Source: Wolbachia endosymbiont of Cimex lectularius
Lineage (GTDB): Bacteria; Pseudomonadota; Alphaproteobacteria; Rickettsiales; Anaplasmataceae
DNA length: 32,000 nucleotides
Direction of reading: 5' to 3'
Assembly (NCBI RefSeq): GCF_000829315.1
Contig: NZ_AP013028.1
Location: forward strand, 690,001-722,000
Position numbers and translations under genes: made by a program. Positions 5,609-30,953 of this stretch are shown piece after piece; the stretch's first letter is position 1, and each line of letters begins with the position of its first letter. The notes below the pieces were generated by a model. The model worked only from the letters and a program-made list of their open reading frames with translations. It was not told the DNA's origin and ran no database searches.

Positions 5609-5881
5609 ATGTATATAACCATTATAGGAACAGGGTATGTAGGTTTAGTATCTGGTACAATGTTATCAGAACAGGGCCATAATGTTGATTGTATTGACAT
5701 AAATACTAAGAAGATTGAGTTGTTAAAATCAGGAAAAATTCCCATATATGAACCTGGATTAGCAAACTATTTAGAGAATAATATAAAGCTGCAAAGGATA
5801 AGATTTTTCAATTCGTATTCTCAAATAAATTCCAATACGGAAGTAGTATTTGTAACCGTAGATACTCCATCAGATTCCTTA
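5609..5881 (+). pseudogene. ugd: UDP-glucose/GDP-mannose 6-dehydrogenase, 5' fragment truncated by IS copy 2
   Basis: MYITIIGTGYVGLVSGTMLSEQGHNVDCIDIN..KIELLKSGKIPIYEPGL...VVFVTVDTPSD is the N-terminal NAD-binding Rossmann domain (GxGYVG). The ORF runs straight into the IS terminal repeat at 5882, and no continuation exists downstream of the IS. Confidence 0.85.
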
Positions 5882-5943
5882 GAACCTGTTTAAAATCTTG
5901 GAAATGTGAGGTAAAGTAAGCATAGATTAATAATGAGGTGTCT

Positions 5944-6258
5944 ATGCAGAAAAGTTATCCAAGTAATATAAGTCAAGAGCAGTTTGAAAAAATCAGGCCA
6001 ATTTTGGAGAGTAGCAAGCAGAAAACAAAACCAAGAAAACTTGATTTGTATGACGTATTTTGTGGGGTGTTGTACGTCTTAAAAAGTGGTTGTCAGTGGA
6101 GGATGTTACCAAAGGGTTTTCCAAGATGGGAAAGCGTATATTACTATTTTCGAGTGTGGAGTAAAAAGAATGGAGAAGAGCCAAGCTTGTTGGAATTAGT
6201 CTTAAAAAAAATTAGTTGGAGAGGTCCGTATCAGCAATGGTCGGAAAGAGAAAACTAG
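5944..6258 (+). CDS. IS transposase OrfA (copy 2)
   Basis: Differs from copy 1 OrfA at three residues (P/L, T/I, S/N) and is identical to copy 3 OrfA. Confidence 0.85.
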   Translation: MQKSYPSNISQEQFEKIRPILESSKQKTKPRKLDLYDVFCGVLYVLKSGCQWRMLPKGFPRWESVYYYFRVWSKKNGEEPSLLELVLKKISWRGPYQQWSEREN

Positions 6259-6734
6259 CTTTTGTATAATTGATTCTCAAAGCGTTAAAAACGCAGATAC
6301 TGCTGAAAAAAAAAGACTATGATGCAGGTAAAAAGATTTCAGGGATAAAGCGCCATATTGCAGTTGATACACAAGGTTTGCCACATGCAATTTATGTAAC
6401 AACGGCAGAAGCAACTGACCGTAGCAGTGCTGTGAAAATGGTCGAAAATGCTAAAGCAAACCTCTCTGAAGTTAAAAACATACTGGTTGATGCTGGCTAC
6501 ACAGGAGAAAATTTTGCAACACAAATAAAAGCTATCATTGGTGCGACTGTTGAAGTAATAAAGCGAAGTGAGTTACACACTTTCGTCGTATTGCCAAAAA
6601 GATGGGTTGTTGAACGCTCTTTTGCCTGGTTAGAAAAGTGCAGGCGACTGTGGAAAAATTGCGAGCGGAAGCTCAACACTAGCTTACAGATGATAGTCCT
6701 CTCCTTCATTTCTCTCCTGTTACGAAGATTTTAA
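6206..6734 (+). pseudogene. IS transposase OrfB with an extra A in the second poly(A) tract (A9 at 6306-6314); the catalytic region is split over two frames
   Basis: The frame entered from the A8 tract (6204-6211) hits TGA at 6320-6322. The DDE remainder continues in another frame (track ORF 6270-6734). Confidence 0.7.
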
Positions 6735-6747
6735 ACAGGTTCTAAGA

Positions 6748-6840
6748 CAGTAAAAAACGCCAATTTAAAAGATAGATAGTGAATAACTAGCTAACTGGGT
6801 TTCTTTTGCCTTTTGTCTGTTTAGTAAATTTCTTAAACAT
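6748..6840 (-). repeat. Partial copy of the composite repeat family (terminal module), abutting IS copy 2
   Basis: aaaaacgccaat...ctgggtttcttttgccttttgtctgtttagtaaatttcttaaacat matches 12660-12730 and the reverse complement of 20113-20200 and 27505-27575. Confidence 0.7.
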
Positions 6841-12598: not shown

Positions 12599-12858
12599 AA
12601 ATTATGGGTATTTACAACCCCAAGTTCAGCTACTTGTTAAGCGTATAGAGCATTAACGCCAAGTTATTAAAATGGATATTGACCAGGGTTTCTTTTGCCT
12701 TTTTCTCCATTTAGTAAATTTCTTAAATATTTATTACTAAAGTAGTATCCTGGGATGGCAGGAGAAGGAGCTACTTGGATGACACCCTCCTGGTAGGCTC
12801 GAATCACAGTGTTCATACAGTTGTAAGCGATACAGATTGGGCAGTCCTGGCTACTAAT

Positions 12859-16809: not shown

Positions 16810-18960
16810 CTACTGAGCGCAAACCAATTTCTCGCACACACATTTTACTATATGATCAGCACTGATATTAAAATGCTTATAAAGTGTTTTATAAGGTGCT
16901 GATTCTCCAAAACTTTTCATACCGATAAATACTCCATTTGAACCTATATATTTATGCCAACCCATTTCACTTCCAGCTTCAATTGCAACTTTAATGCTGT
17001 CATTATTTAATATTGCTGCTTTATACTCATCACTTTGCTCGTCAAAAAGCCTCCAGCATGGCATAGAAACAACTCTTGTACCTATGCCTTTTTCCTGCAA
17101 TTTTTTCCCTGCTTCAACTGCAATTTCAACCTCAGATCCGGTGGCAAATATCGTTACTTCTAGCTCCCCTGAATATTCGCACAGGGTGTATGCACCAAAC
17201 TTCGATAGGTTGGCGGATTGATCAATTCCAAAGTGGAATTTGCGCATGTAATTCACATTTTGCCTTGAAAGTGCAAGCAGTGCGGGTGACTCTTTTTTTT
17301 CCAGTGCAATGCTGATGCACTCCAGAGTTTCGATTGCATCGGCTGGTCTAAAAACGTACAAATTTGGTATAGCACGAAGAGAGGCTAAATGCTCTATCGG
17401 CTGATGAGTTGGACCATCCTCCCCTACTCCGATTGAGTCGTGAGTCATTACATATATAACCTGCTGTCTCATCAAGGCTGAAAGACGTATAGCAGGGCAG
17501 CAATAATCGGAAAACACCAAGAAAGTGCCACCGTAAGGAAGAATTCCGCCATGAAGAGCCATGCCGTTCATACAAGCTGCCATAGCGTGTTCTCTCACTC
17601 CATAGTGGACATAAGAACCACTATAATCATTGCTATTTATTACCTCCATATGCTTATATTTAGTGCAATTTGACCCAGTAAGATCAGCAGACCCACCAAT
17701 TAATTCCGGCATGGACTTAGTTAAGAGTTCCATTACCTTGCCAAAAGAGGACCGTGTAGCTTCGTTTGGCATTGCCTCGTGTATTTGTTTCTTTAGGTTA
17801 GCCAAATCGCTCTCTATATTATCTGGTAAACGTTTCGCAAGTCTTCTTTGCAGTTCTTTATTTTCACTGGATTCCAGTGTCACGCACTGGAATGACACCG
17901 AATTGTTGATATTATCCGGCAAACGCTGTTTTTGAAGTTCTGCGTAATCCTCTGTTATTCCAGTTTCACTCTTTGTCATCCCAGCTCCACTCTTTGTCAT
18001 ACCAGTGCTTGACACTGGGATCCATTCTTTTTCTTCTTCACTGGTCAAGTGCTGGAACGACATCGAATTGTAATTTTGTTTTGCTCTCTCAACTGTTTCC
18101 ATCCAGGCATTTTTCACATCCTTTGGCACATGAAATGGTTCGTGGTTCCAATTTAATCTCTCTCTCATCTTTTTTATATCTTCCTCCGTAAAAGCACCAC
18201 TATGAGCAGAAGATGTACCGGCACGGCTTGAAAATTTCCCAATGATGGTTTTGCAGCAAATAAGCGACGGCTTGTCAGATTTTTGCGCTTGCTCTATTGC
18301 AAGCGCTATGGAGTTAAAATCATGACCATCAATTTTGTTAACATTCCACCCATAAGCTGAAAAACGCTTTTCCACGTCATCAGAACAAGAAAGGCTAGCA
18401 GTACCATCTATAGAGATGTCATTATCATCAAAAAGGGCTATCAACTTATTCAATTTAAGATGTCCAGCAAGTGATGCTGCTTCATGGCTTATTCCTTCCA
18501 TAAGACAGCCATCTCCTAGCATTACATAAGTGTAATGCTTAATTCCAAACTGCTTTTCAAGGATCGATTCAGCAAGTGCCATGCCAACTGAAGTGGCGAG
18601 CCCCTGCCCTAGTGGACCTGTTGTTGCTTCTATTCCTGGAGTCAAGCCAAACTCTGGATGACCTGGAGTTTTGGATGTGAGTTGCCTGAAGTTCTTTAAC
18701 TCATCTATACTAATGTAGCCTGTGAGGTATAATATGGAGTACAGCAGCATTGAACCATGGCCGTTTGATAAAACGAAACGGTCTCTGTTGAACCATTTAG
18801 AATCATCAGGGTTGTGATTTAGATATTTAGCAAATAAAACAGTTGCAACATCTGCCATGCCAAGTGGCATACCTGGGTGCCCAGAGTTTGCTTTTTGTAC
18901 TGCATCAATTGACAAAAAGCGGATAGCATTTGCCATAGATTCCAAAGGTAGATGGTTCAT
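16810..18960 (-). CDS. tkt: Transketolase (716 aa) carrying an in-frame repeat-derived insertion
   Basis: N-terminus [42 protein letters not shown] and [10 protein letters not shown] are all canonical. About 50 residues longer than typical ~660-670-aa enzymes. Confidence 0.97.
17857..18065 (+). repeat. Palindromic repeat sequences embedded in the tkt coding region
   Basis: Hairpin cores attccagtg/tcacg/cactggaat (17871-17893) and ccagtg/cttga/cactgg (18002-18018). The stretch tctgttattccagt..c.ttgtcatcc.ag...gacact.g.atcc (17951-18023) is shared with intergenic 20041-20096. Confidence 0.8.
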
Positions 18961-20040: not shown

Positions 20041-20565
20041 TTCTGTTATTCCAGTGCCCCTTTCTTGTCATCCAAGTAGCTGACACTAGAATCCAGGATA
20101 CTACTTTAGTTATAAATATTTAAAAAGTTTACCAAGCGAGAAAAAAAGCAAAAGAAGCCCTGGTCGGTGGCTAATTATTTATATGTACCTCAAATATCGG
20201 CGTTTTTATTCTCAGCGCTACGATTCAGCTACTTTTAAATGCAACTAACCAAAATTGTAAACGTTAAGAAATTTACTAAGCAGAAAAAAAGGCGAAAAAA
20301 CTCTAAGGCAGCTAGTATTCAAATTCTCCCTTGTCTATTTGACGTTCTATACTGTCTTAAACGACTTATAAGCGCGTTTCAGCTTGTATAGATAAAAACC
20401 AGAAGTTTTAAAAGACGTAAGGTGCACATAGTGCAAAAATTTAAACATGAGACGCCAAATACCCTAAGTTTTTTGTCATTAACCTGCACAGATTGCGAAG
20501 ATAAACAAATAGCTTCATAATAACAAGGTTGGTGAAGGTTGTCAAGTAGTTTTTTTCGTTTCTAT
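20041..20565 (+). repeat. Composite ~0.5-kb repeat, copy F2
   Basis: Order: palindromic head (20041-20105), two tandem ~125-150-nt modules starting near 20113 and 20262, then a ~200-nt tail ending in the promoter-like module. Collinear with 27497-27945. Confidence 0.8.
20517..20545 (-). promoter_or_regulatory. Promoter-like module in repeat F2 (TTGACA-N17-TATTAT on the minus strand)
   Basis: Plus strand has tgtcaa at 20540-20545 and ataata at 20517-20522, with 17 nt between. Upstream A-tract on the minus strand. Confidence 0.5.
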
Positions 20566-23558: not shown

Positions 23559-24020
23559 ATGTCAACAGATTACAATATTAACTTGACTGACAATGCGTTA
23601 AAGAAAATTCACTCCCTTGTAGAGCAGGAAGAGGACAAAAGTTCTGTTTTGCGAGTTGCAGTTTCAGGTGGCGGATGTTCTGGCTTCAAGTATAATTTTC
23701 TTATAGATCAAATAAATAAAAGTCTATCTTTGAGTGATGACGACGATGATGATTACGATGATGAATTTGATGACGACGATGATGACGATTATGAAGAAAG
23801 CGAGGATTATAGAGGCCACTCTAGCTTTAGCAGGAAAAGCAAAGATATAGTAATTAACGACGAAAATGGAAACCCTGTATTAATGGTTGATAATTGTTCG
23901 GCGAAATTTTTAAATAACTCAACTATAGATTACACTGAAGATCTAAGTGGTTCTGGGTTTCAAATAAAAAATACTCTTGCTAAGTCTCAATGTGGGTGTG
24001 GTAACAGCTTCTCAGTTTAA
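23559..24020 (+). CDS. erpA: HesB/IscA/ErpA-family Fe-S cluster insertion protein with an internal acidic insertion
   Basis: LRVAVSGGGCSGFKYNF...IDYTEDLSGSGFQIKN..AKSQCGCGNSFSV is the canonical A-type carrier pattern. ATG at 23559 preferred over the GTG at 23553. Confidence 0.85.
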   Translation: MSTDYNINLTDNALKKIHSLVEQEEDKSSVLRVAVSGGGCSGFKYNFLIDQINKSLSLSDDDDDDYDDEFDDDDDDDYEESEDYRGHSSFSRKSKDIVINDENGNPVLMVDNCSAKFLNNSTIDYTEDLSGSGFQIKNTLAKSQCGCGNSFSV

Positions 24021-26988: not shown

Positions 26989-27077
26989 ATAAGATATCAA
27001 AAAAAACTACTTGGGTTGATAGAGAATTGCAATTTTGAAACCATCGATTAGGTCTTATCGCTACAGTCTCCCTATCA

Positions 27078-27110
27078 GAACCGTGCATGCGAATTTCCCG
27101 CACACGGTTC
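27078..27110 (-). ncRNA. Group II intron domain V-like hairpin (probable intron remnant)
   Basis: The minus strand reads GAACCGUGUGCGGGAAAUUCGCAUGCACGGUUC. Compare the classical domain V GAGCCGUAUGCGAUGAAAGUCGCACGUACGGUUC: same lower helix, 2-nt bulge and GAAA-containing apical loop. It is 1 nt shorter and has AAC in place of the AGC triad. Confidence 0.45.
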
Positions 27111-27496
27111 CACAATATAGTGTTCACAATATTTACTTCTGTGCATATAAGGAAACACATATTCTTGGCTTCGGTATACCAATTCCCATCACACAGGGAG
27201 CAGATATGCCACACGCTATTCTACTTGTTTCAGTATGGGCCTTTTCCTCGTTATTGTCCTATGTAATGGGAATTGGTATAAGCAATCAATCCAGTCAACA
27301 GTATCACTCCTTGCTCATTATAGACTTACAGCTTTGATTTAATATACAATCCAGGAAAATTTGCTTGTTCACAAGCAAACTGATTTGGTGATCATGGAAA
27401 GTAGCTAATCTTATGCTAAAAACGTTCTTGGTGAGGTTGCGTGATAAAGGCTGGACAGAATTACACCTTCTACCCAATTTATGAATTACAACTAGC

Positions 27497-27945
27497 TATA
27501 AATATTAAGAAATTTACCAAGCGAAAAAAAAAGCAAAAGAAACCCTGGTCAGTATTTATTTTTAGTATTGGCGTTTTTATGTCTTAAACGCTGCAATTTA
27601 GCTGCTTTTAAACGCAACTAGTCTAAGCTATAATATTTAAGAAATTTACCAGGCAGAAGAAAAGGACAATAAAACCCCGAGGTAGCTAGTTATTCCACTC
27701 TCTATTTTAAAATCCGGCGTTGGGTGATGTCTTAAACGACTTATAAGCGCGTTTCAGCTTGTATGGGTAAAAACCCGAAGTTTTAGACATGCAGTGCACA
27801 TAGTGCGAAAAATTAAACAATAGTACGCCAAATACAAGTTTTCTTGTCATTTTAACCTGCACAGATTGGGAAGTTAAACAAATAGCTTCAATACTATTGA
27901 TAAAAGGAATAGCGAAAGTTGTCAAGCAGTTTTTTTGTTTCTATT
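27497..27945 (+). repeat. Composite repeat, copy F3
   Basis: Collinear with 20105-20565: tandem modules starting near 27505 and 27630, then the tail gtcttaaacgacttataagcgcgtttcagcttgta...ending in ...gttgtcaagcagttttttt. Confidence 0.8.
27897..27925 (-). promoter_or_regulatory. Promoter-like module in repeat F3 (TTGACA-N17-TATCAA on the minus strand)
   Basis: Plus strand has tgtcaa at 27920-27925 and ttgata at 27897-27902, with 17 nt between. Confidence 0.45.
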
Positions 27946-28099
27946 GAATTCCCGTGGCTTCTGAATATATAGAGGTTGTCCGGAAGCTAGCAAATTCAAG
28001 CATATTCCCTCTTTAACATAACTCTACTCATAGCTAAGTATATGAAATTCTCAGTGAATGTTGTGAGTAAATCATACTCCTTCGATAGCCTTCTTTTTT

Positions 28100-28215
28100 C
28101 TGCCTGGTAAATTTCTTAAATATTATAGCTTAGACTAGTTGCGTTTAAAAGCAGCTAAATTGCAGCGTTAAAGGCATAAAAACGCCAATACTGGAAATAA
28201 ATACTGACCAGGGTT
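28100..28215 (-). repeat. Inverted partial copy of the repeat module; right arm of a 116-bp inverted repeat with 27541-27656
   Basis: The reverse complement of 28100-28215 aligns by eye to 27541-27656 with about 4 substitutions and no gaps. Confidence 0.85.
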
Positions 28216-28385
28216 TTTTTTACTTTTTTTTAGGTTATGCGAGAAGTCTGCTTTCATTTTGACTAAAAGTTTAATCATTACTAATATTAATAAAAATTTA
28301 ATAATAATCCTTAACAATATATGAATTAACATGTTCGCAGCTTCGCATGATAGAGGAAGTAGAAGAATATTCTCTTAGAACCTGT

Positions 28386-28914
28386 TTAAAATCTTCGTAA
28401 CAGGAGAGAAATGAAGGAGAGGACTATCATCTGTAAGCTAGTGTTGAGCTTCCGCTCGCAATTTTTCCACAATCGCCTGCACTTTTCTAACCAGGCAAAA
28501 GAGCGTTCAACAACCCATCTTTTTGGCAATACGACGAAAGTGTGTAACTCACTTCGCTTTATTACTTCAACAGTCGCACCAATGATAGCTTTTATTTGTG
28601 TTGCAAAATTTTCTCCTGTGTAGCCAGCATCAACCAGTATGTTTTTAACTTCAGAGAGGTTTGCTTTAGCATTTTCGACCATTTTCACAGCACTGCTACG
28701 GTCAGTTGCTTCTGCCATTGTTACATAAATTGCATGTGGCAAACCTTGTGTATCAACTGCAATATGGCGCTTTATCCCTGAAATCTTTTTACCTGCATCA
28801 TAGCCTTTTTTTTTCAGCAGTATCTGCGTTTTTAACGCTTTGAGAATCAATTATACAAAAGCTAGTTTTCTCTTTCCGACCATTGCTGATACGGACCTCT
28901 CCAACTAATTTTTT
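28386..28914 (-). pseudogene. IS transposase OrfB (copy 3) with A9 in the second poly(A) tract (28806-28814); the catalytic region is split over two frames
   Basis: Same frame structure as copy 2. One T-to-M difference (YVTMAEATD). Confidence 0.7.
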
Positions 28915-29176
28915 TTAAGACTAATTCCAACAAGCTTGGCTCTTCTCCATTCTTTTTACTCCACACTCGAAAATAGTAATATACGCTTTCCCATCTTGGA
29001 AAACCCTTTGGTAACATCCTCCACTGACAACCACTTTTTAAGACGTACAACACCCCACAAAATACGTCATACAAATCAAGTTTTCTTGGTTTTGTTTTCT
29101 GCTTGCTACTCTCCAAAATTGGCCTGATTTTTTCAAACTGCTCTTGACTTATATTACTTGGATAACTTTTCTGCAT
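28862..29176 (-). CDS. IS transposase OrfA (copy 3)
   Basis: Protein identical to copy 2 OrfA. Confidence 0.85.
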   Translation of the reverse strand: MQKSYPSNISQEQFEKIRPILESSKQKTKPRKLDLYDVFCGVLYVLKSGCQWRMLPKGFPRWESVYYYFRVWSKKNGEEPSLLELVLKKISWRGPYQQWSEREN

Positions 29177-29472
29177 AGACACCTCATTATTAATCTATGC
29201 TACTTTACCTCACATTTCCAAGATTTTAAACAGGTTCTTAGACCTTGCCATGCAGAAAAGCAATCAAAGTATGACTCAATTTCTAAAAGAAAATGGGGCA
29301 AAAACAAGTTTAGAGATAAAAGTGCAATTAGCAGTATTAACTACGCTAACTGTTATGACCCTCAGTTTAGCACTAGTAGTATATTCTGTTATGAAGGGCA
29401 TTCGAGAAATTTCTGCAAAAAAACCATGCGGCATTCTCGATGAAGTAGAGGGCAAAAGGGTGAGATCTTCAA

Positions 29473-30084
29473 TTACGCAAAAAGTATAAGGTCAATTGTA
29501 GTAAAATCACACAATTGCTTCGTAGAGCTATGTCCTGTAATAATTACTATACCATTTTGCTCAGAACGTATTGAGATTAGGTTCAGCACTAATTCGCAGG
29601 TTGCACTATCAAGATTACAAAATGGCTCATCTATCAGCCAAACATTCGCATTAGAGATTAAGAGGCGAGCAAGTGCAACTCTTCTTTTCCAACCTGCAGA
29701 AAGTTCACCATATCTAATATTAAGTACAGGTTGTAACTGTAAACAACAAACAGCGGCCATAATCAATTCTTTAGTATCTCGTATTTCTGCCCAGAGTTCT
29801 ATGTTTTCAGCAACAGTTAGACTATTCTTGCAGGCATTTTTATGCCCTATATAGACCATAGAAGGTATATAAGACTTTGGGTCATCATATATGTCTTTTC
29901 CACAATGCTTTATGTTGCCTGATACTGGTGGCAATAGTCCGGATAAGCTTCTGATTAAGCTGGTTTTACCACTACCATTTGGACCAGTGATTAAGATCTT
30001 AGATTTTGGCTTAGCTTGAAAACTGAGATTTTTAAATAATATTTTATTATTACGGGCACAGGATAAATTTTCACATTCAAGCAT
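29473..30084 (-). CDS. ccmA: Heme exporter ATP-binding protein CcmA (cytochrome c maturation)
   Basis: 203 aa ABC ATPase. L.C.NLSC.R....LF.NLSF, Walker A GPNGSGKTS, LSAGWKRRVALARL, Walker B WLIDEP. The small size is typical of CcmA. Confidence 0.82.
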   Translation of the reverse strand: MLECENLSCARNNKILFKNLSFQAKPKSKILITGPNGSGKTSLIRSLSGLLPPVSGNIKHCGKDIYDDPKSYIPSMVYIGHKNACKNSLTVAENIELWAEIRDTKELIMAAVCCLQLQPVLNIRYGELSAGWKRRVALARLLISNANVWLIDEPFCNLDSATCELVLNLISIRSEQNGIVIITGHSSTKQLCDFTTIDLILFA

Positions 30085-30226
30085 TTACTGGACCTCCAAA
30101 GAGGACCTGGAGCCTAGATACTTCGATGTATGAACATTGCAACTTGTAGGTAGTTTGTGCAACAGACAGTAAGTGTTTGATACGTAAGCATTGTGATTTG
30201 AGAACTCTTTTCACTAAGAGGATGTT

Positions 30227-30431
30227 ATCCCAGTGCCTGAGCACTGGGATCCAGGAATGCTGGTTGAACACTAGATTGGTAAGTATGGAAGTAATTAACC
30301 TAATGTTAAAACACAGCGTCAACTTTTCCGGATTCCAAATAGGAACAACATGGAATGACACAAGAAATCTAATGTTTATTAAACCCATTTGCAAGCAAAG
30401 TTTGCTGGATCCCAGTGTCAAGCACTGGGAT
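30227..30431. repeat. Pair of inverted palindromic elements (MITE-like) in the ccmA upstream spacer
   Basis: atcccagtgc/ctga/gcactgggat (30227-30250) and atcccagtg/tcaag/cactgggat (30409-31). The wider motifs gatgttatcccagtgc...gggatccagg and ctggatcccagtg...gggatgacatcc are reverse complements of each other. Confidence 0.75.
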
Positions 30432-30521
30432 GACATCCTTGTGTCTGAGGCAACACTGGCTGTAAAACTTAACATAATTCAAGGAGTTTAATATCAGAAA
30501 GTAGGCTGTACAACGGATACA

Positions 30522-30953
30522 TTATCTGCCCTTTCCTTTATACTTACCCTTAGTTGAAGCCTGAGCTTTTACAAACAGCTCCCAAAATCCTTTCTGTCCG
30601 CCTTCTCTATTTATCAACTGCGCCAAACGCTGCATAAATCCACCACTTAACATAACCATTTTTGTCCATTTACCTACTGGCTTTGCAATGTCAACTATTT
30701 CTGGATCTTCTTTGTAAACCTGTATATCTTTTTGCTTTTCGCGCAGCATTTCTTGATGTTTCATCAACCCTTTTTGCTTATTCTTTTGATATAATTCATT
30801 GAATTTTCTGTCTTCCTCCCACTTTTCTTCAAGGACTTTTTTAGGAAATATGATTTTCCGAATTCGGTTCTTGTATATATTTCTCAAAAAGAAAAATACT
30901 GCAGCCGCAGCAAGTAATGTTATGCTATATATTATGATCTGTACAAATGGCAT
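30522..30953 (-). CDS. Hypothetical membrane-anchored, lysine/glutamate-rich protein (143 aa)
   Basis: N-terminal TM IIIYSITLLAAAAVFFFL, then a charged coiled region. No family recognised. Confidence 0.5.
   Translation of the reverse strand: MPFVQIIIYSITLLAAAAVFFFLRNIYKNRIRKIIFPKKVLEEKWEEDRKFNELYQKNKQKGLMKHQEMLREKQKDIQVYKEDPEIVDIAKPVGKWTKMVMLSGGFMQRLAQLINREGGQKGFWELFVKAQASTKGKYKGKGR

Follow-up and report, generated by a model that had tools for sequence, protein, structure and literature searches.

The transketolase gene of wCle and its product

The DNA analysed here is a stretch of 32,000 nucleotides (nt) from the Wolbachia endosymbiont of Cimex lectularius, wCle (contig NZ_AP013028.1, positions 690,001 to 722,000), referred to below as the window, with positions counted from its first letter. 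It contains the transketolase gene tkt (16810..18960, minus strand), and within the frame of this gene lie copies of a short palindromic repeat that is also found between genes. In the list of open reading frames (ORFs) tkt is uninterrupted and 716 amino acids (aa) long, in agreement with an earlier reading of this DNA from its letters alone, hereafter the original prediction. The product has the same sequence as the wCle (supergroup F) transketolase BAP00012.1 / WP_041045848.1, and this also bears out the assignment of the DNA to a Wolbachia-like genome. The gene, called essential in the original prediction, is presumed to be so.

Pfam places Transketolase_N at residues 8-299, Transket_pyr at 401-570 and the C-terminal domain at 589-699, with a gap of approximately 100 aa between the first two. 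The equivalog model TIGR00232 matches the product over its full length with 825.3 bits (cut-off 682.25), identifying it as a transketolase. It keeps the residue in every column that is invariant, or nearly so, among 108 transketolases, and the backbone of the protein, outside the gap region described below, is under purifying selection, with a ratio of nonsynonymous to synonymous substitution rates (dN/dS, omega) of 0.08-0.16. For the insert, dN is 2-5 times that of the backbone and omega is 0.18-0.62, the latter calculated on few codons. The same 716-aa product has been recorded from seven contigs, including a 1.25-Mb genome, and sister metagenome-assembled genomes (MAGs) encode versions of 709 and 698 aa.

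A structure model was made with AlphaFold2. A run on 25 near-identical Wolbachia sequences gave a pLDDT of 33 and was discarded in favour of an alignment of 108 diverse sequences, which gave a pLDDT of 91.4 and a pTM of 0.90. This model superimposes on the transketolase structures of E. coli and H. influenzae with TM-scores of 0.94-0.95 and a root mean square deviation of about 1.8 Å. Residues 305-359 are the sole stretch of at least three residues with a pLDDT below 50, and lie between the helices 280-305 and 365-374. Mapping on a model, as had been proposed in the original prediction, thus puts the insert in a low-confidence loop, and its peptide is predicted to loop out in disordered form, with no effect on the fold or the catalytic residues.

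Anatomy of the insert

Protein and DNA alignments of orthologs delimit a variable block of 71 codons (298-368; 17857..18069, minus strand, 213 bases). It stands in place of the six residues VSSTSE of the 651-aa Wolbachia alleles, a net gain of 65 aa. Alignment of 104 distant transketolases with four from Wolbachia revealed no counterpart of the block in the distant sequences, which have an ordinary helical stretch of 18-25 aa at this place, and the 651-aa Wolbachia orthologs have no counterpart either. A conserved peptide at this position in orthologs from repeat-poor relatives had been named as grounds for giving up the original prediction; orthologs free of the insert do exist, and the claim that the insert has no equivalent in ordinary transketolases stands.

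The block is made up of three copies of a 30-nt stem-loop (two intact and one lacking an arm), a 21-nt tandem array and a duplicate of a segment of tkt itself. First on the coding strand is REP-a (18039..18063, minus strand), a decayed forward copy without its 9-nt 3' arm, which reads ATGTCGTTCCAGCACTTGA and then CCAGTG and encodes the peptide SFQHLTSE. It is supported by a DNA alignment with the copy of strain wMel, ATGTCATTCCAGCGCGTGACGCTGGAATCCAGG, and its ability to fold has been lost (z 0.05). After a spacer encoding EEKE follows REP-b (17995..18024, plus strand; TGTCATACCAGTGCTTGACACTGGGATCCA), which is intact, reversed relative to the coding strand, and forms a hairpin of -6.2 kcal/mol (z -3.0). 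REP-b encodes a 10-aa module that is matched by the C-terminal third of the NCBIfam model TIGR02697. The tandem array (17953..18006, no strand assigned) contains 2.6 copies of a 21-nt unit consisting of the repeat's head and 5' arm (Tandem Repeats Finder score 73) and encodes GMTKSGA / GMTKSET / GIT; across alleles its copy number ranges from one to four units.

The next part (17898..17950, minus strand) is a copy, with a 9-nt gap, of positions 17815-17856 of the same gene. Only 1 of 2000 shuffles gave an equally good local DNA alignment, and the self-duplication is plainer in other alleles (ELQRRLDERLPDN ... ELQRRLDKRLPDN). REP-c (17868..17897, minus strand), an intact forward copy, reads TGTCATTCCAGTGCGTGACACTGGAATCCA on the coding strand, encodes (V)SFQCVTLES and forms a hairpin of -8.4 kcal/mol (z -4.6). 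Immediately past the block is the parent of the duplicate, the resident tkt segment of 14 aa (17815..17856, minus strand), which holds the first conserved residues. REP-b and REP-c are identical at 27 of 30 positions in inverted orientation, and pair with each other in the predicted RNA fold (minimum free energy -62.7 kcal/mol, z -3.3). Both hairpin cores of the original prediction, ATTCCAGTG-TCACG-CACTGGAAT at 17871-17893 and CCAGTG-CTTGA-CACTGG at 18002-18018, lie where it had placed them, as does the peptide that it quoted.

Copies of the repeat elsewhere in the window

The pattern ATNCCAGTGN5CACTGGNAT occurs at three sites in the window (17871, 17999 and 30409), two of them within tkt; 0.01 sites are expected, and none of 100 shuffled sequences reached three. 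The third site belongs to an intergenic copy (30406..30435, minus strand) located between an ORF ending at 30084 and an ORF starting at 30522, and identical to REP-b at 29 of 30 positions (blastn E 1.7e-9). A variant copy, also intergenic (30225..30255, plus strand), has a 10-bp stem and a 4-nt loop (-11.6 kcal/mol, z -5.0), and aligns with 17995-18024 of tkt with a score of 40, the maximum in shuffles being 24. Finally, an intergenic composite copy (20041..20096, plus strand) consists of tandem half-repeats followed by a full copy, the same layout as 17951-18024 of tkt. The local alignment of this copy with 17951-18023 scores 38, with a maximum of 30 in shuffles (0 of 2000 as good). The copies with a 9-bp stem and a 5-nt loop form stable hairpins, with folding energies of -6.2 to -9.2 kcal/mol and z-scores of -3.0 to -4.6.

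The nucleotide similarity between the insert and intergenic DNA, which the original prediction had left to a proper alignment, is therefore significant, and the same palindromic repeat is present both between genes and inside the intact, selectively maintained frame of tkt. The related cores that had been listed at 30227-30250 and 30409-30431 correspond to the two intergenic copies at 30225-30255 and 30406-30435. One further core, at 12741-12800, did not hold up as a relative of the tkt block, since 159 of 2000 shuffles aligned equally well; it was kept as a relative of the 20041 copy only (score 48, 0 of 2000).

Two overlapping intergenic ORFs, 30077-30475 (minus strand, 132 aa) and 30177-30491 (plus strand, 104 aa), are mostly translations of the repeat (SSQCLTLGS, WIPVLRHWD, DPSVKHWDD). 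ORFs of this kind are spurious and liable to be annotated as "WPE domain protein".

Identity of the repeat

On sequence grounds, the 30-nt unit, TGTCAT-NCCAGTG-N5-CACTGGN-ATCCA, is the Wolbachia form of a published family of repetitive extragenic palindromes (REPs), CGTC-4. The unit has a (T/C)GTC head, a 9-bp stem (ATNCCAGTG/CACTGGNAT), a 5-nt loop and a CCA tail. Likewise, CGTC-4 repeats are dispersed stem-loops with a 4-nt head, a 5-nt loop and a tail of CCA, and they frequently stand in inverted pairs or in clusters. Di Nocera, De Gregorio and Rocco (2013, BMC Genomics 14:522, PMC3733652) record CGTC-4 from both wMel and wRi, identify it with the RPE-4 of R. conorii and report that REPs also lie within genes. 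Their supplementary table contains a ComEC gene of wRi with the peptide VIPVLDTGI, which is the forward frame-2 translation of the core in the tkt window; the unit is hence the same sequence as a published Wolbachia member of the family. REP-b, REP-c and the copy at 30406-30435 all end in ..ATCCA(G/T), and the repeat is dispersed in the manner of the family, with three canonical copies in 32 kb, at least 120 loci in the genome search described below, and both pairs and clusters among them. In two respects the tkt case differs from what that paper describes: tkt is missing from its list of intragenic sites, and the tkt block, rather than being a simple singleton or dimer, is composed of five parts, host sequence among them.

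The CGTC-4 unit is also the brick of two further known entities. One is the Wolbachia palindromic element (WPE), a palindromic Wolbachia repeat that occurs outside genes as well as in frame within protein-coding genes, as the unit does here. WPE in Wolbachia was reportedly described by Ogata, Suhre and Claverie in 2005. The canonical WPE is 36 aa long (85 bits with TIGR02697, WPE_wolbac) and consists of two of the same cores with a conserved spacer; two positive controls from other Wolbachia loci matched the full profile with 85.2 and 47.4 bits. The 10-aa module of tkt aligns to positions 23-36 of the 36-aa domain, and the tkt insert differs from a WPE in having neither the first module in the right frame nor the conserved 16-aa spacer. 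We rejected the insert as a canonical WPE, its match to TIGR02697 being partial and below the cut-off. As a full WPE is a core pair with a fixed spacer, the tkt block contains the brick of WPE without being a canonical WPE.

The second entity is the Wolbachia small RNA WsnRNA46 (Rfam RF02625), for which murD and the host dynein heavy chain have been reported as targets. A tail-to-tail pair of the repeat at 30206..30454 (minus strand) matches this family over model positions 1-151 with 68.6 bits (gathering threshold 65.3), with a 122-nt insertion in the apical loop. The family consensus itself is a tail-to-tail pair of the 30-nt core, and to judge from it the published "small RNA gene" is a REP/WPE dimer. 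The tkt block was rejected as a WsnRNA46 (16.8 bits, E = 2).

The original prediction had compared the insert to Rickettsia palindromic elements (RPEs), and the analogy proved apt, the core being CGTC-4 and CGTC-4 having been equated with RPE-4 (PMC3733652). RPEs are selfish palindromes located in frame in housekeeping genes, where they keep the ORF open and form loops off the active site (Ogata et al. 2000). In tkt the insertion is likewise in frame, preserves the ORF and is missing from orthologs, and in the AlphaFold2 model the coil 305-359 is predicted to lie away from the catalytic site. Furthermore, the CGTC-4 peptides published for R. conorii, WIPWSNHGMT and VIPWLDHGI (PMC3733652), parallel the 10-aa module of tkt and VIPVLDTGI. 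The Wolbachia case differs in the genus and in its diverged sequence, and whereas RPE-1 is a single unit of 100-150 bp, the tkt block is a multiplied 30-nt unit together with a host duplicate.

The allelic series at the tkt site

We compared 120 Wolbachia tkt clusters, of 643-733 aa, and nearly all of their variation in length is at this single site. VSSTSE or a near variant is the only sequence there in 20 of the clusters, namely the rest of the wCle backbone group and the strain of Atemnus politus (supergroup S). One cluster (P0108) has TSLINE and five have SSVSLTSENK. All the others, 94 clusters, contain between one and three repeat-coded modules plus one to four of the 7-aa GMT units; in wMel the sequence at the site is 42 aa long. 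Close relatives of wCle differ from it by one 21-nt unit and by an inverted loop, VSST versus VLDT in the protein and TCAAG versus CTTGA in the DNA.

At the site the sequence is GTGTC-CTCGA-CCAGTGAA in the short alleles and GTGTC-CTTGA-CTAGTGAG in those of 655 aa, that is, head, loop and tail of the repeat with both 9-nt arms gone. No single contiguous deletion, wherever it is placed, turns a single-copy allele into a short one. Reasoned from the DNA alignment, the derivation fits only if each arm is removed by its own 9-nt gap and small gaps are allowed in the flanks. Obvious filters on such paired losses of 9 nt are in-frame selection and release from forming a hairpin.

Among the tkt alleles, armless versions of the repeat, which retain GTGTC as head, CTTGA/CTCGA as loop and C(C/T)AGTGA as tail, are found in P0114-P0116, in P0105 and in the first unit of L126 (wPip_733); L121 and L122 have them too. 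REP-a of wCle and the SFQRVT-RKEEKE alleles have each lost the 9-nt 3' arm independently. Loop inversions in otherwise unchanged hairpins (CTTGA versus TCAAG) were observed in P0122-P0129 compared with 17995-18024, and in L068 and L089, with the peptides VLDT versus VSST and CLT/CVT versus CQA. This suggests hairpin-mediated template switching.

Dispersal across genomes and copies in other genes

A search of species-representative genomes with the 28-nt pattern GTCATNCCAGTGN5CACTGGNATCC found at least 120 loci. These include many Wolbachia strains, Brucella endophytica, Brucella sp. IR073, Mesorhizobium, Paramesorhizobium, Phyllobacterium, Dongiaceae and Acetobacteraceae. The copies outside Wolbachia read CCGTCATCCCAGTGCTTGTCACTGGGATCCAT and are mostly arranged as head-to-head pairs about 110 nt apart. 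In the free-living Rhizobiales the head is CGTC, and the copies share about 28 of their 30 letters with the Wolbachia core, about 2 being different. For non-coding DNA, such conservation of the 30-nt core across orders is striking. A phage as vehicle was rejected, as the 28-nt pattern is present in one of 2.9 million viral contigs.

Pairs in Rhizobiales (L010, L011, L013, L028, L034, L058, L084 and others, from Brucella, Mesorhizobium and Paramesorhizobium) have conserved ends and variable spacers. We also considered the possibility that the whole inverted pair of wCle tkt is homologous to these dimers; this was rejected, as the 30-nt ends alone align, the spacers are unrelated and the wCle spacer is tkt sequence.

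Of the 141 cores in the Wolbachia loci retrieved, 40 sit in a frame that stays open for at least 60 aa in both directions, compared with 50% of random positions; the cores are thus depleted in genes, but far from excluded from them. Four of the six reading frames of the core are stop-free, and all four are used in genes. Hosts of in-frame cores confirmed by Pfam are IleRS, LeuRS, PurL, PPDK, CcmF, an E2 acyltransferase and UvrD-type helicases. In-frame inserts resembling WPE have previously been reported in addA, addB and priA (Badawi et al. 2014).

Origin of the wCle allele

We interpret the block, with a probability of roughly 85%, as selfish-repeat DNA that has turned into coding sequence; in wCle it looks like an old composite allele and is probably not the product of a fresh transposition. 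A copy of the core would first have inserted where the last helix of the ThDP (thiamine diphosphate)-binding domain meets the helix that leads to the Pyr domain. Further steps would then have been local to the tkt site: addition of a second, inverted copy, slippage of the 21-nt half-repeat, tandem duplication of the repeat together with its host flank, deletion of 9-nt arms and inversion of loops. We infer both the order of these events and the mode in which the repeat moves. As four of the six frames of the unit are free of stops, in-frame insertion of a copy at a permissive surface loop does no more than lengthen the protein, and only in-frame, stop-free products are observed because tkt is under strong purifying selection.

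Several observations weigh against this interpretation. Di Nocera et al. (2013, PMC3733652) found no dedicated transposase for CGTC REPs, so "selfish" mobility is deduced solely from the distribution of the repeat. Every copy in the window has the head TGTC, not the CGTC after which the family is named; elsewhere, Wolbachia copies mostly have TGTC and one (L104) CGTC, and the Rhizobiales copies all have CGTC. The TGTC head is a C-to-T change in an AT-rich genome, and Wolbachia copies still count as CGTC-4 to the authors of the family. TIGR02697 matches the insert with 24.4 bits (E 2e-5), below its cut-off of 27.55 and over profile positions 17-36 only. The short alleles may be decayed copies rather than virgin sites, to judge from their head, loop and tail, which leaves the direction of change ambiguous. 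The synonymous divergence (dS) of the insert between wCle and the allele MAG_698, 0.63, is close to that of the backbone, 0.69, and fits old vertical inheritance as well as import from another strain. Finally, translation of the insert and activity of the enzyme are presumed.

With regard to how wCle acquired its allele, we consider it somewhat the likelier course that the ready-made composite was imported by homologous recombination. The wCle DNA is 95-100% identical to the short supergroup F alleles right up to both junctions. In a neighbour-joining tree of the backbone wCle is nested among about 19 short-allele clusters, and a clade of short F alleles excluding wCle was recovered in 0 of 100 bootstraps. 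At the same time the block shares oddities with MAG_698 and with a group-A allele, namely the 9-nt deletion of the REP-a arm and the ELQKQRL duplicate. The nested backbone together with oddities common to distant alleles favours import. MAG_698 as the direct donor was rejected, as its block is 81-90% identical to that of wCle, no closer than the backbones are to each other.

The alternative is that the composite dates back to the supergroup F ancestor and beyond it, and that wCle kept the block while other F strains lost it by deletion or by recombination with short alleles. We regard this as distinctly less probable, although it has points in its favour. Both the short and the 655-aa alleles resemble armless remnants, single-copy alleles (NSVSFQC.TLESSE.K) are found in several distant backbone groups, and the dS values given above are about equal. 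The position of wCle among the short-allele clusters speaks against it, and so does the near-identical 6-aa sequence in all short clusters and in the Atemnus politus strain, which would require several identical losses.

Another reading is that the insert has gained a function, as a protein surface loop contacting the host or a partner, as an mRNA structure tuning expression or as a source of a WsnRNA46-like RNA. The omega of the insert between wCle and MAG_698 is below 1 (0.18), the two inverted copies form the long mRNA stem described above, the pair between genes at 30206-30454 is a member of a published small RNA family, and most Wolbachia tkt clusters have retained some insert. We nevertheless find such a function unlikely. 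The insert is hypervariable in length and content, it is predicted to be disordered, and the closest relatives do without it and show no compensating change. Moreover, the omega value comes from 64 codons, constraint acting on the hairpin in the DNA confounds it, and the score of the WsnRNA46 model on the tkt block is the 16.8 bits already mentioned.

A separate speculation concerns the repeat itself. About 28 of its 30 letters are the same in Wolbachia and in free-living Rhizobiales, Dongiaceae and Acetobacteraceae. A conserved host enzyme might recognise and propagate the 30-nt hairpin, the process might still be active in Wolbachia, and the tkt site would then be a live hotspot; we would give this little credence. 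If it were true, loss of arms, flipping of loops, slippage of the 21-nt unit and duplication of flanks, combined with exchange between strains, would lead to protein-length polymorphism, and the inverted pair within the gene might give rise to a WsnRNA46-like RNA or tune the expression of tkt.

That the copies were inserted de novo into an empty F-type tkt in the wCle lineage is very unlikely. The flanks are indeed of F type to within a few bases of the block, and the intergenic copies in the window are 90-97% identical to the tkt copies. However, the block is a five-part composite, part of it host tkt sequence and not repeat, and the loss of exactly 9 nt from REP-a and the ELQKQRL duplicate with its 9-nt gap recur in MAG_698, P0002 and P0129, details that an independent insertion would be unable to recreate. 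An assembly error or a freely drifting tkt pseudogene, for which the sole hint is that NCBI labels the long forms "transketolase family protein" and not "transketolase", can be considered refuted by the identical product on seven contigs, the sister MAGs of 709 and 698 aa, the unbroken ORF, the low omega of the backbone, the conserved columns and the confidently modelled fold.

Relation to previous work and implications

In-frame palindromic repeats have been known in Rickettsia and Wolbachia since 2000-2005 and are represented in NCBIfam as TIGR02697. Our literature search found no paper naming tkt specifically as a host of the repeat; tkt is a newly documented instance of a known behaviour, its novelty is low, and the basic picture of RPE and WPE is unaltered by it. 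The parts worth noting are the allelic series, the conservation of the core across orders and the identity of WsnRNA46 with a pair of the repeat. The last of these bears on how such "sRNA genes" are to be read in RNA annotation.

For protein annotation, the repeat accounts for the range of 643-733 aa among Wolbachia transketolases and for the name given to the long forms, and the additional residues are repeat-derived and should not be taken as a new domain. The series of 120 clusters at one codon position is a natural record of a hairpin repeat trapped under purifying selection, displaying gain of copies, 9-nt arm losses, loop inversion and expansion and contraction of the 21-nt unit; cassettes apparently move between strains. 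The tkt site could also serve as a strain marker in typing.

Other repeats and features in the window

A second intergenic repeat family, with members of 70-140 nt (..TTAAGAAATTTACCAAGC..AAAAGAAACCCTGGTC..), is present in the window in both orientations, at 6781-6840, 12669-12753, 20093-20168, 20203-20312, 27505-27562, 27576-27677 and 28093-28231. At 12741 and 20061 it adjoins a degenerate copy of the hairpin repeat. An insertion sequence of about 870 nt occurs three times (1968-2838, 5878-6748 and 28368-29241) with 99-100% identity; it has terminal inverted repeats of 41-51 nt and a transposase frame in two parts. The copies at 1968 and 5878 have the same orientation and are separated by 3.9 kb, and the one at 28368 is inverted. 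The catalytic domain of a group II intron (Rfam RF00029) was detected at 27009-27112 (minus strand) with 46.8 bits (gathering threshold 40), and GAT/GAC-rich repeats of 9-12 nt at 23735-23810 form an acidic, D/E-rich coding tract within an ORF.

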